Assembly: GCA_016183365.1 (NCBI GenBank)
Contig: JACPES010000003.1
Coordinates: 409,154-473,153 of the forward strand
DNA from: Candidatus Collierbacteria bacterium
GTDB lineage: Bacteria > Patescibacteriota > Microgenomatia > UBA1400 > JACPES01
Direction: 5' to 3'
DNA length: 64,000 nucleotides
Position numbers: made by a program. Every line of letters starts with the position of its first letter. Position 1 is the first letter of the stretch. Below, piece by piece: positions 1-6,000 of the stretch.

Positions 1-3000
1 ATTTCACCCCGGACCGCAGATTATTTCTTGACAACATGACCATTTATTCTTCGGAGAGTATTTATCGATTGGGTATAAAGAATATCATCAGGATGATGTT
101 TTCAGATTTTCGGAAAGGGAAAGAACTGGTATGGCGTTTATTTTTGCGGGATTTTACCTCCCGCCATAAACAGTCGCTTCTTGGCTGGTTGTGGATTATT
201 TTAATGCCGTTGATGACGATGGGAACCTTTCTTTTGTTAAATATGTCCGGCATTATCAAGATCGGTCGGATTGATATTCCATACCCTATTTTTGGCTTGG
301 TGAGTTTTTCTATTTGGAATATTTTTTCTAACGGGCTGACGACGACGACCAGCAGCGTGACCGGAGCCGGAGGGCTGGTTCAGAAAATTAACTTTTCTAA
401 AGATTCGTTGGTGTTTGCTTCATTTGGACAGGTAGTGATTGATTTCCTGATCCGGGTAGCGCTGACTTTTGGAATATTTTTGTTATATGGAAGAATCCCT
501 CTGGCGAGTTTTCTCTTATTTCCGGTTGTCCTCCTTCCCCTGGTACTCTTGACGCTTGGCATGGGAATGGTGACGTCGCTTCTCCAGGCGATCAGTAAAG
601 ATGTTGTCAGCTTTGTCAATCTTGGAACGGGATTCCTCCTCCTTTTGATGCCGGTGATGTATTCGGCGGAGCAGGTGGGAATACTCGGGAAATTAAATGC
701 AGTAAACCCCTTGTACTATCTGGTGATTGTCCCCAGGGACATTATGCTATATGGTGAAATTCGTCATCTGGCGGGATTTATTGTTTCGAGCGTTTTCGGA
801 CTGATTGTTTTTGTCTTTGGGTGGATGTTTTTCTATCTTTCACAAACAAAACTAGCAGAAAGGATTTGATGTAGGAGTAAAGAGTATGGAAAACGTTATA
901 GAAGTGAAAAATGTTTCCAAAAAGTTTTGTAAGAACATTAAACGATTGATGATGTACGGGCTGATGGATGTCGTACGGGGAATCATAAACCTTCCTACTC
1001 ACGCCGAGCGGTTGCGTCGCGACGAATTTTGGGCGCTTCGGAATGTGAGTTTCGACGTTAAAAAAGGTGAATCGGTCGGTTTCATCGGCCTGAACGGTTC
1101 CGGTAAAAGCAGTTTATTAAAACTTATCAACGGTATTTTTCTTCCGGATGTTGGCGAGATAATGGTTCAAGGGAAGACCGGAGCGCTGATCGAGGCCGGG
1201 GTCGGATTCCACCCGTCCTTAACCGGAAGGGAAAACATCTACCTCAATGGGACGATTTTGGGCATGAAGAAAAAAGAAATAGACGAACGGTTCAGCGATA
1301 TCGTCAGTTTTGCAGAAATAAAAGAATTTCTTGATACTCCGGTAAAAAACTACAGCAGTGGTATGGTTGTCAGGTTGGGGTTTTCAATCGCGGTCCATTC
1401 GGCGCCGGACATTTTGTTGATCGACGAGATTTTGGCGGTCGGCGATCTTGCATTTCAAAAGAAGTGTTTTGAAAAAATCAAATCACTTCGGCGTGAGAAC
1501 AACGTTACCATTGTTTTCGTGAGTCATGATATGGATAATATCCTTAGAATTTGCGACAGATGCATCCTCTTAGACCGTGGCAAGGTAAAAATGATTGGCG
1601 AGGCGGACAGAGTTGTGTCCGCGTATCTTACGTAGTATTATCCTAACTCGATATATGTTTAAATCAACATTTTCCATAGGCAAGAATATCATCGGAGGAA
1701 ACCACCCGTGTTTTATCATCGCGGAAGTTAGCGCCAACCATGACCAGAAATTCGAGTATTCAATTAAGTTGGTTGAGGAAGCCAAAAAAGCTGGCGCCGA
1801 TGCGGTAAAACTCCAGACGTACACGCCCGACACGCAGACAATCAATGTGTCAAGGGGAAATTTCTTGATTCCGAAAGGCAATACATTCGAAGGCCCGAAA
1901 AATCTCTACGAACTCTATAAAACTGCCTATATGCCGTGGGAATGGCAGCCGAAGCTGATGCAGGTTGCAAAAAAATTGGGAATTGTTCTTTTTTCCACGG
2001 CATACGAAGAAACGGCTGTGGATTTCTTGGAGAAGGAAGTCAAAATTCCGGTTCACAAAGTGGCGTCGTTTGAGATGACTGACGATTTTTTGCTCGCCAA
2101 AATGGCGAAGGCCGACAAACCGATAATTATGTCGACCGGGATGGCGACTTTGGAAGAGATTGATCACGCGGTTAGCGTACTCGAAGATAATGGTTGTACT
2201 CAATTGGCTATCTTGCGCTGCAGTAGCGCCTATCCGGCAACGGCGGAAGAAATGTACTTGAAAGATATGGAAGTTCTGCGGGAAATTTATCAAGTGCCGG
2301 TTGGGGTTTCAGATCATTCTGTCGGCATAGGAGTTTCGGCGGCGGCCGCGGCGTTGGGGGCGAACGTGATCGAGAAACACATTATGTTGGTGGGAGAAAA
2401 AGATAGCCCTGACCATAGTTTCTCTATGAATCCAGAAGAATTTAAGCGAATGGTTATTGCCATCCGTCAGGCAGAAGCATCAGTTCAAGGGATTCACTTT
2501 GGCCCCTCGAGCACGATGGAGGCAGATCATAAACGATTGTTTCGCCGCTCGCTCTATATTGTCGAAGATATGAAAAAAGGTGAGAAATTAACAAAGAAAA
2601 ATCTCCGCGCCATTCGTCCCGGCGGTGGGTTAGAGCTAAAGTATCACGAAGAATTGTTGGGAATGAAAGTGAATAGAGCGGTTACTCGCGGCACGCCGAT
2701 GAATTGGGATTTGGTGAGGTAACAAAAGTTTTAGTTCCCGAGGTTGACGGATTGGGTAAGCAGGAAGCGTAGTTGCAACAAGACTCGGTCGGTGGCGGTG
2801 GCCGAGCCTTTGAATCGGTAAATATCGCGAAGTCTGGTAGCCTGCCGGGAAAAAATACTTCCCCTGTATTTATCATCAAATAACGATCTTTCTATGGTAG
2901 GGAGAATCTCTCCATCCGCGTGAACGACGGAACCAGCTCCTATCTGGGAGGGAGTTGGCAAGATGGTACCGGTTTTATTTAGCGCATCAATCGCGATTTG

Positions 3001-6000
3001 TGAGATAAAAAACATTGGCATGTGGCCGGTTTTCGGTCTTGAACTCTCGGGTTTGGCCCCGCAGAGAGCGACGCCGGTATTGGTGGTGGAAACCGTGGTA
3101 ATAACCAGGTCAGCTGCCGCCAGCGGAGAGCGACTGTCAGATCTAGAATCCGACGGCTTGTGGATTATTAGCTTTAGATTGTCAGGAATCTCGACGAAGT
3201 TAGTTAGGATTTCGTTTAAGACTTGAGGTTTTTGATCATCTGGGTGAAAGCGGTAAACGAAAACGAATTTTCGCTTCGGATATTTTTTGGCTAATTCTAA
3301 TATTCCCAACAGAACTTTTGGGGTAGAGTCAATTTCAATTTCACTCCAAAGTCCGGTTCCCCGGATGGCATTGTAGGCGATAACTATCGTTTCTGACGAA
3401 ACCCTGTTGGTTTCTCTAAACTGATTGCCGACGGCAGTAGTGTTTTCTGAATGAAGAAAGTCAAAGCCGGTGGGTCCGGTAGTGACAAGTTTTAGTGTGG
3501 GGAAACCTATGGCTTCGTAACCGGCGACGGCGAAACGGTTGGCCAAAAACAAAGCGTCTATCTGATGTTCGAAATCTATTCCAGCTTCCTTAAGCTGCCT
3601 GATAGTCCCGACCAATTCGGAAGCTTCACCTTCAACGCCGACGATAATCGCTTTATTACCCTGTTTTTTCAGTTCAACCGCTTCCTTTATGACAGAGAGT
3701 TCCAGCTTTTCATCTCCTCCGCCGGAGGCGGTAAAGACGACTAAATTAGTCTTTTCCGGAGAAAGTATTTCGGAAATAATCCGGGTTGGCCTTGATTCCG
3801 GCAGGCGAGAGAACTGGTGTTTTCGGGCAAAAGCCGTAGCCGCCCTTTCTTGGCCGTTTTGATCAGGGAGAGTAATTAAGGTGCATTCCGCTCCTTTGTT
3901 GATTAGTTCAGCGACGAGGGGCAAAATTGCCCTGGCGCCTGACGGATGAGCGGCGACAGCTATAACATTTATATCCCAAGGTTTTTTAACGCCTTCGTCT
4001 TTATTCCAGGAAAATAAACTTAGTGGATCGGGGAAGGTTTCCTTACGCTCCGGATATACTATTTCCATAGGTTGTATTATAGTGGTTACATCAGATGATA
4101 AAAACGAAGCAGCTCAACGTGTGGACGGGAAAATTTGGAGAAGAATATACGGATCGAAATATCCAAACGATAGAAAGTCTGGATCGGGACTATCGGAAAG
4201 AGTTCGGAGTTTCCGCGACAACATTTTTTAGGGATGCCCTTCATGGTTTGCCAATCTCTTCTGTGTTGGAAATCGGCTGCAATATCGGAAATAAACTCGC
4301 AATTTTTCATTCGCTAGGGATTAAGAATCTAACCGGAGTTGAACCTCAACAATATGCGATCAAGAAAGGGAAAAAACGCTATCCATTTATCGCGTTTCGG
4401 CAGGGAACCGTCTTTGATCTGCCGTATCCAAGCAATTCTTTTGATCTGGTGTTTACGTCCGACGTCCTCATTCACGTCAGCCCAAAGCATCTCGCAAAGG
4501 CTCTTGGAGAAATTGTCAGGGTTTCGCGGCACTTTGTATTGGGATTTGAATTTTATTCCGGCAAATCCCAAGCAGTTGTCTACCGTTCTCACAGTGATTT
4601 TCTCTGGAGAAGAGACTACAAGCAAGACTATTTGAAATTGTTTCCAAACGTAACGGTTATCTATGAAAGAAAATTTAATCACAATGAAAAGGTGGTGGGT
4701 GCAGCCGGACTAAAATCGGAAATATTCGTCTTGAAGAAGAATTAACAATATCAGTTCTGTTGCAGTTTGAGTGTATTAACTTCCTTTTGTATTTGCTGTA
4801 AAGAAAGCCAGTCTGTGTTGTTGTTACTCCGATACCAAAAAGGCTTCTGGGTCGAGCTTTGGAAACTGCCAAATTGTTTTTTTGACCAGTGCGGTTTTGG
4901 CGGAATGACGAGATAATGTTTCTTAAATTCTTTAGAATAGAGCGATTCTTCTTGTGCAATTAATTCCTCATGGAGTTTTTCGCCGGGGCGGGTTCCGGCA
5001 ATTTTAATCTTGGCATTAGGGGCCACGGCTTTTGCCAAGTCAGTAATTTTAACCGATGGTAATTTCGGAATAAAAATTTCACCGCCGTTCATTTCGGTCA
5101 AACACATCTCCACGAATTTTGCCGCTTGGGGTAGGGTTATCCAAAACCGGGTCATATCGAGATGGGTAATGGTCAAAACCCCAGTGTTTTTTTGTTTTAA
5201 AAATAACGGTACCACGCTGCCGCGGCTGCCCAAGACATTTCCGTAGCGGGCGACGGAGAAAAAGGTCTTTTGTTTGCCGGCGTAAACATTTCCCTGAATA
5301 AATAATTTTTCCGCAGTCATTTTAGTGGCGCCGTAAAGGTTGATTGGATGAACGGCTTTGTCGGAGCTGATGAGAATCGTCTTCTTGACTTTGGCATCCA
5401 GGGCGGCTTCGACTACGTTTTGACTGCCGAGAACATTGGTTTTGACGACTTCAAACGGGTTGTATTCGGCGACGACAATCTGTTTTAGGGCGGCGGCGTG
5501 GACGATGATGTTGGCGCCGTGGGTCGCTCGGCAGAGTCGTTCCTTATCTCTGACGTCGCCGATAAAAAATCGGAGGCGGAGGTCGTCGGGATATTGCTGT
5601 TGGAGCTGGTACTGCTTGAATTCGTCGCGGGAAAAAACCCGAATGGTACCGGTGAAGTCTTTTTTTGCCAAGAGGAAATTGATAAAGGCCCTGCCGAAAG
5701 AGCCGGTTCCGCCGGTGAGAAGAATGGTGGATTTCAAAATGTCCTCTTTGTTCGTCACAGTAAATGATTTTACACCATCGCTTGCGAAAGCTATAATTCC
5801 AGATTGAGGTTGTCTTCATTGGACCAAAGAATCCCCAGAGTGGTTTGTTTATATCGGACTTTAGGTTCTCTGGCGGTCAGGACCCACAACAGTTCGCGGT
5901 ATTTGGAGAGTTCTTTGAGGTGGAACATCACGGTAGCTATGATTATATCTGATTAATTTTATTGAGAAATAGATTAAAGAAATTACTATTGGGAAAAAGT

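Follow-up and report, generated by a model that had tools for sequence, protein, structure and literature searches.

A divergent variant of the pseudaminic acid pathway encoded in Candidatus Collierbacteria

The canonical pathway to pseudaminic acid (Pse), a sialic-acid-like nonulosonic acid (NulO), runs PseB-PseC-PseH-PseG-PseI-PseF and is known from Campylobacter and Helicobacter, with annotated clusters in Bacillus, Klebsiella and Agrobacterium plasmids. The nucleotide has to come off the sugar before PseI can act. Few Pse transferases are known. In Tannerella forsythia, knock-out and complementation demonstrated that Tanf_01245 and TFUB4_00887, orthologues of BFO_1060, are needed to add a Pse or legionaminic acid (Leg) derivative to the O-glycan; both are TagB-like GT-B proteins with the D/E-D/E-G and HP motifs typical of bacterial sialyltransferases (PMC5420450). 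Here we analyzed a stretch of 64,000 nt (the window) on a contig of 588,265 bp from a Candidatus Collierbacteria bacterium (Patescibacteria group, Microgenomates group). Window positions 1-5758 are likely the right-hand end of a ~16-kb cluster for making and exporting a Pse derivative.

Cells of the candidate phyla radiation (CPR; Patescibacteria) live attached to host microbes, and to our knowledge almost nothing is known of their surface chemistry. No publication linking pseudaminic, legionaminic or nonulosonic acids with CPR was found in the literature searched. A first-pass annotation of the window had proposed a NulO biosynthesis module made up of four open reading frames (ORFs), all of which are real at the coordinates it gave. 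Together with an exporter, they open the window as follows.

36-869, plus strand: ABC-2 permease, Wzm-like (PF01061 on record; weak Wzm/RfbD match)
886-1635, plus strand: ATPase of an ATP-binding cassette (ABC) transporter, TagH/Wzt-like (TagH-type models 208 and 181 bits, Wzt/RfbE 170 bits, all below cut-off)
1655-2722, plus strand: PseI, pseudaminic acid synthase of the NeuB family with SAF domain (TIGR03586, 408.1 bits, above cut-off)
2731-4068, minus strand: soluble GT-B-fold protein of 445 aa from a rare family (homologues at 58-71% identity)
4095-4745, plus strand: Pse-associated methyltransferase dependent on S-adenosylmethionine (TIGR03587, 147.1 bits, above cut-off; Pfam Methyltransf_11)
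4751-5758, minus strand: PseB, inverting UDP-GlcNAc 4,6-dehydratase, step 1 of the pathway (TIGR03589, 438.4 bits, above cut-off)

The curated equivalog cut-offs of NCBIfam are 340.25 bits for PseI, 407.75 for PseB and 112.05 for the methylase. PseI, with Pfam domains NeuB and SAF, reached only 281.8 bits on the NeuB_NnaB model for N-acetylneuraminic acid (cut-off 399.65), and 395 bits on a hidden Markov model (HMM) made from five annotated PseI; its GenBank entry, MBI2309915.1, already bears the name 'pseudaminic acid synthase'. PseB (PF02719, Polysacc_synt_2) scored 372 bits on an HMM made from annotated PseB, 240 bits on FnlA (cut-off 730) and 49.7 bits on LegB (cut-off 475). Because PseI and PseB pass their equivalog cut-offs, the module is of the pseudaminic type, and the proposed identities of synthase, dehydratase and methylase are all upheld; neither an SpsE-like synthase nor a CapD-like dehydratase was found. 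PseB and PseI, the two stereochemistry-defining enzymes, thus both pass Pse-specific cut-offs.

The first-pass annotation had also remarked that neither a cytidylyltransferase nor an N-acetyltransferase was obvious. Inside the window this is correct, since Pfam scans of large ORFs across it gave no NeuA/PseF-type or GNAT gene, but it does not apply to the cluster as a whole. The public Logan contig SRR12113424_8479 (hereafter L008; other L numbers denote related loci) is identical (100%) to window 1-7961, window position 1 being L008 position 9966, and carries exact copies of both exporter genes. The window thus cuts the cluster, and the two genes are not missing but lie upstream: a CTP_transf_3 family gene and a GNAT gene are located on L008, 2.4-9.5 kb upstream of window position 1. 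The upstream half reads, in order:

L008, first upstream gene, minus strand: 612-aa protein with faint Glyphos_transf similarity
L008 504-1277: CTP_transf_3 cytidylyltransferase, 257 aa (PF02348 on record)
L008, between CTP_transf_3 and the 403-aa gene: Gfo/Idh/MocA oxidoreductase
L008, before DegT: 403-aa GT-B protein (weak Epimerase_2, BFO_1060 (36.8 bits) and TIGR04396 matches)
L008: DegT aminotransferase (PF01041), best on PseC TIGR03588 (211.1 bits, below the cut-off of 423.5)
L008 4903-6779 (window -5062 to -3186): second NeuB-family synthase and RmlD-like short-chain dehydrogenase/reductase (SDR)
L008 6984-7547: PseH-like GNAT (TIGR03585, 48.9 bits vs cut-off 93.1)
L008, from 7528: PseA/WbuX N-acetyl-sugar amidotransferase, 371 aa (TIGR03573, 368.9 bits vs cut-off 203.2)
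L008 8640-10004: GatA-like amidase, 454 aa (PF01425); the final 12 codons and stop are window 1-39, plus strand, with the stop at 37-39

The CTP_transf_3 protein scored 58 bits on KdsB-type models and 26.8 bits on PseF (TIGR03584; cut-off 205.7), while the GNAT scored 69.5 bits (E 1.4e-20) on an HMM of three annotated PseH. As the PseC, PseH and PseF counterparts all fall under their NCBIfam cut-offs, the upstream steps rest on synteny and family-level similarity. This weighs against a straightforward assignment of the pathway, and the Pse-derivative product and its chemistry in Collierbacteria are predictions from the genes.

The amidase probably supplies ammonia to the PseA/WbuX amidotransferase encoded upstream of it. 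The WbuX/PseA gene overlaps the amidase gene by 4 bp in all CPR-type loci, while the usual partners, HisH/HisF-like proteins, stand in place of the amidase in L016, L018 and a Pseudohalocynthiibacter plasmid; it looks as if the ammonia-supplying subunit had been swapped. The second NeuB-family synthase scored 273 bits on the NeuB and on the PseI model alike, below cut-off for both. The pair that it forms with the SDR between DegT and GNAT is unique to this genome, being found in none of L001, L002, L025 and L026; on a Bacillus cereus plasmid (L030), a comparable pair of SDR and NeuB-family genes has a TagF-like gene nearby.

The gene order of the cluster recurs in five independent loci: L001 (a 244-kb contig), L002, L025, L026 and, rearranged, L016. 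The first four share the order CTP_transf_3, Gfo/Idh/MocA, 360-aa GT-B, DegT, GNAT, WbuX, amidase, permease, ATPase, PseI and PseB, with the ABC-2 permease in synteny in each. L016 holds a compact cluster of PseB, canonical PseC (467 bits), PseF-like and PseH-like proteins, PseI, WbuX/HisH/HisF and a 66%-identical orthologue of the 445-aa protein; the only other unassigned protein there has 8 predicted transmembrane segments. The methylase, transcribed divergently from the 445-aa gene across a 26-bp spacer, has orthologues in L001 (93% identity) and L016 (55%). L026 lacks both of these genes and keeps the rest of the cluster. L025 has a deletion scar at 11069-11719, where the 445-aa gene is gone and the methylase is a 5'-truncated remnant without its first 51 codons (165 vs 216 aa). 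On comparison of these loci, the 445-aa gene and the methylase gene are gained and lost together.

The PseI of the window belongs to a clade of ~40 sequences at 55-83% identity, with ordinary bacterial PseI next at ~53%. Among them is a homologue of 79% identity in a record labelled 'Parcubacteria group bacterium GW2011_GWC2_45_7', and L025 carries that PseI. Pse genes are thus recurrent in CPR and have been deposited for years. The first-pass annotation had called such a sugar in an ultra-small putative episymbiont noteworthy; the genome is indeed a CPR genome, but the trait is not unique to it, given the Parcubacteria-labelled record and the ~40 metagenomic sequences. Neither the 445-aa family nor the DNA of the window was found in GTDB species genomes, and an exact-DNA scan of JGI metagenome contigs for window DNA gave nothing. 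A protein scan of metagenome contigs returned four loci only, all from the close (65%-identity) group already sampled.

One departure from the canonical pathway is the absence of a recognizable PseG. Trained on five annotated pseG genes from plasmid records, an HMM recovered these sequences at 525-596 bits, and at E<=0.1-1 detected no PseG in the window or in 11 loci (L008, L001, L002, L012, L014, L016-L018 and L025-L027). The same approach did find relatives of PseB, PseC, PseH, PseI and PseF. The upstream 403-aa protein reached only 16.1 bits on the PseG model TIGR03590, and PMC7371886 gave nothing relevant to clusters that lack PseG. Since PseG was not found in these loci and PseI needs a nucleotide-free sugar, some other protein would have to remove the UDP.

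The 445-aa protein, named 'hypothetical protein HYU89_03370' in GenBank (MBI2309916.1), is the candidate next to PseI. A word-indexed search yielded 12 homologues, and 37 came from an exhaustive profile search that covered 1.84 billion protein cluster representatives; a second word-index search with the wide family alignment added nothing useful, and tblastn against plasmids gave no match. The protein had no Pfam or NCBIfam match, none to PF04464 (TagF) or PF05159 (KpsS) even at E<=1, none to the PseG HMM, and none to NF046086 (BFO_1060; cut-off 200). An AlphaFold model from 29 sequences has two Rossmann-like domains, with a predicted local distance difference test score (pLDDT) of 91.7 and a predicted template modelling score (pTM) of 0.90; it supersedes an earlier model from 10 close sequences (pLDDT 68), which gave generic GT-B matches only. 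It has 180 matches in the PDB at E<=0.001, and among the 50 listed all but one are GT-B enzymes, from which we confidently predict a GT-B fold. The first-pass annotation, which had named a TagF/KpsS-like GT-B protein here, is therefore supported on the fold but not on the family.

Foldseek comparison of the model with the PDB placed UDP-GlcNAc 2-epimerases first (E 6e-11 to 5e-8; template modelling score reaching 0.57 when normalized to query length and 0.68 to target length), followed by TarL (E 6e-8) and TagF (E 1e-7). The best PDB sequence-profile match likewise came from a 2-epimerase family member, CapG (E 5e-4), with TagF second (0.01); profile searches with the core 445-aa family or the 403-aa family gave marginal matches only. 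Residues invariant down to ~30% identity include H41-P42 in the β1-α1 loop, E146, G198, D203, R218, R236, H275-P276 and S327. In alignment with the epimerases, E146 is the Glu of 'E-A-G', G198-D203 is 'T-G-x-P-x-x-D', R236 is the Arg of H-R-R-E and H275-P276 is 'H-x-N-P'. The catalytic residues of the 2-epimerases we take to be D95, E117, E131 and H213 (E. coli WecB numbering). E146 is the equivalent of E117, and D119 is possibly that of D95. The H213 equivalent is not conserved in the family (it aligns to I235 or Ala) and the E131/PEExNR motif is absent. With these two residues not conserved and no Epimerase_2 (PF02350) match, we rejected the protein as a 2-epimerase; TagF, KpsS and PseG were rejected on the lack of matches given above.

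We tentatively assign the 445-aa protein as a sugar-nucleotide hydrolase feeding PseI, a reading we put just short of evenly balanced. It is consistent with the lack of PseG in the loci scanned and with sugar-nucleotide epimerases as the closest folds. The gene adjoins PseI, each of the five annotated reference clusters likewise has pseG beside pseI or pseH-pseI, and in L016 the 66%-identical orthologue is the sole soluble GT-B protein. An invariant His also lies in the loop where, as we understand it, PseG has its catalytic His. Several observations weigh against this assignment. L025 and L026 retain the whole cluster without the 445-aa gene, so that in those two loci the core pathway can do without it. 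Alignment of the family with PseG by hhalign gave a probability of 0.8-35%, which lends the hydrolase reading no direct support. The His and Glu missing from the epimerase set tell against it too, L016 is a 19-kb contig so that a hydrolase could be encoded outside it, and superfamily relatives match BFO_1060, named after the orthologue of the Tannerella Pse/Leg transferases.

A possible but somewhat doubtful alternative, suggested already by the first-pass annotation, is that the 445-aa protein is a CMP-Pse glycosyltransferase. In that arrangement it would act in the manner of the TagB-like Tannerella enzymes and transfer Pse from CMP-Pse to a surface glycan or polymer, the methylase would tailor the product, and the 403-aa paralogue would supply the hydrolase. 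The protein has an invariant His-Pro and conserved E146 and S327, but the HP motif does not discriminate, because 2-epimerases have His-x-Asn-Pro at the same position. Of the 29 members of the extended family, 15 match PF04464 (best E 4.4e-7), two match a polysialyltransferase family, one matches GT52 and none PF05159; the window protein itself matches none of these even at E<=1. NF046086 BFO_1060_trans is matched by 10 of the 29 at 14-39 bits, best by P0024 (E 4.8e-10), a member with E 1.8e-39 to the core profile, and weakly by P0020 and P0021 (the contigs of P0013 and P0020 are too short for gene context); these matches span ~70-80 residues around the HP region and stay far under the cut-off of 200. 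The accessory nature of the gene, absent from L025 and L026, would suit a tailoring or transfer enzyme, and a 35%-identical homologue in L017 is surrounded by GT2 genes and not by genes for NulO synthesis. On the other side, epimerases are the first structural neighbours, with TarL and TagF ~1000-fold weaker in E-value, and a transferase role would leave the otherwise complete Pse set of L016 without a hydrolase candidate. We consider some other role for the protein unlikely.

The 403-aa protein upstream is a remote paralogue of the 445-aa protein. BLASTP between the two was not significant, but the wide-family HMM matches the 403-aa protein and its orthologues at 73-101 bits, which places the 445-aa and the 360-403-aa proteins in one superfamily. 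BFO_1060 (NF046086) matches the 403-aa family at 37-45 bits (E 1e-9 to 1e-12; cut-off 200). For this conserved 360-403-aa paralogue a hydrolase role is favoured, since it is embedded in the biosynthetic operon and has homologues in NulO-like clusters that lack PseG: in Azospirillum these adjoin CTP_transf_3 and Gfo/Idh/MocA genes, in Pseudohalocynthiibacter WbuX/HisH/HisF genes. For the 612-aa paralogue, whose 611-aa counterpart in L025 ends, in its visible part, in the same 'TGHP' motif, a role as transferase or polymerase is favoured.

It is improbable, in our view, that the cluster makes another NulO (2-epimerised or a novel isomer), with the GT-B proteins acting as NeuC/LegG-type hydrolysing 2-epimerases and the Gfo/Idh/MocA protein and divergent DegT altering stereochemistry. 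The upstream operon of CTP_transf_3, Gfo/Idh/MocA, epimerase-like GT-B, DegT and acetyltransferase resembles legionaminic/lga-type loci, and its first three genes also occur together in the Azospirillum plasmid cluster. In L025, Pfam gives an unmarked Epimerase_2 match for the orthologue of the 403-aa protein, and NeuC matches are weak (13-18 bits); DegT, GNAT and the cytidylyltransferase all lie below the Pse equivalog cut-offs, and the second synthase fits neither NeuB nor PseI. Against this stand the Pse-specific scores of PseB and PseI, which are far lower on the FnlA, LegB and NeuB models, and the H213 and E131 positions, which are not conserved in the 445-aa family.

That the Pse genes arrived recently by horizontal transfer, or were binned here in error, and so are no real CPR trait, as one close PseI homologue (79% identity) labelled 'Nitrospirota bacterium' and the frequent mobility of glycan islands might suggest, is very unlikely in view of the 588-kb contig, the housekeeping genes in the same window (recO, a class II aminoacyl-tRNA synthetase, mraZ, rsmH, a penicillin-binding protein, a Mur ligase and glmS), a GC content of 0.39-0.48 that, like the GC skew, does not break at the module, and closest relatives that form a clade of the same synteny including the Parcubacteria-labelled record. 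Mis-binning in particular is contradicted by the housekeeping genes and the unbroken base composition. The proteins of the window are GenBank entries of 'Candidatus Collierbacteria bacterium' (MBI2309915.1, MBI2309916.1 and others; 100% match), which bears out the CPR origin that had been proposed for the module.

Each of the 32 two-kb bins of window 1-64000 has a positive GC skew (0.03-0.22), and the cumulative skew climbs monotonically. The sign is independent of gene strand; the stretch from 2.7 to 13.8 kb, for example, holds mostly minus-strand genes. PMC7143001 reports a Microgenomates genome with an unusual disparity in nucleotide composition between its two strands.

If the cluster makes a Pse derivative, as we favour, its gene content suggests the following route. 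PseB, by orthology, would turn UDP-GlcNAc into the 4-keto-6-deoxy-L-sugar, which DegT would transaminate and the GNAT acetylate. A GT-B hydrolase would then remove UDP, the epimerase-like GT-B proteins of the cluster taking the place of PseG, and PseI, again by orthology, would condense the freed 2,4-diacetamido-hexose with phosphoenolpyruvate. The CTP_transf_3 protein would activate the sugar with CMP, while WbuX and the amidase, from their family membership, would form an acetamidino group. Methylation may follow, giving CMP-Pse with an acetamidino group and possibly a methyl group. From the adjacency of the genes, a GT-B paralogue might move Pse to a lipid-linked cell-surface glycan in the cytoplasm, for export by the Wzm/Wzt-type ABC transporter.

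A wider proposal is that CPR, and some Proteobacteria with similar operons, make Pse-type sugars without PseG. The 445-aa and 360-403-aa proteins, as a hitherto unrecognised GT-B family that is epimerase-like and bears the HP motif, would serve as hydrolase, and the long TagF-like paralogue and TagGH-like exporter would build a Pse-containing, teichoic-acid-like wall polymer on the episymbiont. Taken as a whole this is speculative, and we regard it as rather unlikely.

The first-pass annotation had linked the module to a DegT aminotransferase ~7 kb away in the window. The gene is a genuine DegT, with the following neighbours.

10844-11827: UXS/ArnA-like SDR
12476-13726, minus strand: DegT aminotransferase (PF01041); PseC 333.1 bits (cut-off 423.5) and ArnB 329.3 bits, both below cut-off
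13808-14533: polyprenyl-phosphate-type GT2 (PgfS 65 bits, ArnC 62 bits)
14497-16116: large membrane protein, 539 aa, no family
16121-16696: hexapeptide acetyltransferase
16760-17131: EamA-like protein, 123 aa

As the Pse aminotransferase it was rejected, because a syntenic DegT stands within the upstream operon in every related locus. From its gene content, window 10844-17131 is possibly an Arn-like module for a lipid-linked aminosugar, and the DegT at 12476-13726, lying outside the Pse module, probably serves this adjacent pathway. Among the sugar genes here are also a four-helix-bundle protein (10450-10824; TIGR02436, 126 bits) and a small clan-AA aspartic protease (11837-12199; TIGR03698, 36 bits, below cut-off). 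A 119-aa aspartic protease of similar kind directly follows the 448-aa homologue in L016.

Glycan genes are contiguous for at least 57 kb on the 588-kb contig (window 5861-47616 together with L008 1-9965), an unusually large share of a reduced genome. The island holds 5 GT2, 6 GT4/GT1, 3 PMT_2-type GT-C and a YfhO-like protein, together with a Wzx flippase, a Wzy_C/O-antigen-ligase-like protein, a Bac_transf initiating transferase and ManC. Tailoring functions are represented by a NodU-like carbamoyltransferase, two hexapeptide acetyltransferases, two methyltransferases and an SGNH/AlgX-like protein. Four large membrane proteins and one small gene also belong to this region.

7076-7232 (L008 17012-17194), same direction as PseB: 60-aa DUF5989 gene, between the PMT_2 GT-C and carbamoyltransferase genes
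17254-18891: large membrane protein, 545 aa, 8 transmembrane segments
22017-23549: large membrane protein, 510 aa, 7 transmembrane segments
26075-27361: large membrane protein, 428 aa, 4 transmembrane segments
27421-30333: large membrane protein, 970 aa, 14 transmembrane segments

None of the four large membrane proteins, whose transmembrane segments are predictions, matched Pfam at the threshold applied, and the two scanned with NCBIfam matched nothing there. All four may represent new proteins of GT-C or polymerase type. A 524-aa protein of L001 shares 25% identity with the 510-aa one. Towards the far end, window 60385-62701 encodes in order a CofD/YvcK-like protein, a stand-alone GlmU N-terminal (uridyltransferase) domain without the acetyltransferase half, and a HEPN-domain protein. 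The nucleotidyltransferase at 61373-62119 matches the GlmU N-terminal domain at 208.9 bits, in agreement with its earlier description as GlmU-like rather than NeuA-like. An Rfam scan of the window gave no match.

A complete-looking route to a sialic-acid-like sugar within a glycan island of this size points to heavy investment in surface decoration, which could serve host attachment, phage evasion or immune-like recognition. Loci without PseG, combined with a very rare GT-B family, offer a concrete candidate for either a non-orthologous replacement of PseG or a new class of Pse transferase.

Four known systems resemble this locus in part. The wall-teichoic-acid machinery (TagB primase, TagF polymerase and TagGH exporter) offers a parallel in its short and long GT-B paralogues, faint PF04464 similarity and position near a TagH-like ATPase and ABC-2 permease; this likeness lies below family level, and the donor would be CMP-Pse rather than CDP-glycerol. 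The UDP-GlcNAc 2-epimerases (WecB, MnaA, CapG and the hydrolysing NeuC/LegG; PF02350) come closest to the 445-aa model in structure and share aligned motifs with it, but the 445-aa protein has an extra N-terminal strand and ~70 more residues. The Tannerella transferases are likewise soluble, TagB-like GT-B proteins with NulO-gene neighbours and an HP motif, and are reached by local model matches. These matches cover only the HP region at 37-45 bits, against a cut-off of 200, with none for the 445-aa protein, and Tannerella has a canonical PseG whereas the Collierbacteria-type loci do not. The canonical Pse pathway differs in its PseG, a GT28-like hydrolase found in none of the related loci. 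In the Collierbacteria cluster, the PseC, PseH and PseF equivalents are divergent, the Wzm/Wzt exporter separates the amidase from PseI, the partner of WbuX is a GatA-like amidase and not HisH/HisF, and there are three epimerase/TagF-like GT-B paralogues (612, 403 and 445 aa). The two nevertheless share orthologous PseB and PseI, with DegT, GNAT and CTP_transf_3 proteins in the same cluster, and the PseA/WbuX-type amidotransferase and TIGR03587 methylase, known companions of Pse clusters, are present here too. The Collierbacteria cluster is a divergent variant of the known Pse pathway in an understudied lineage.

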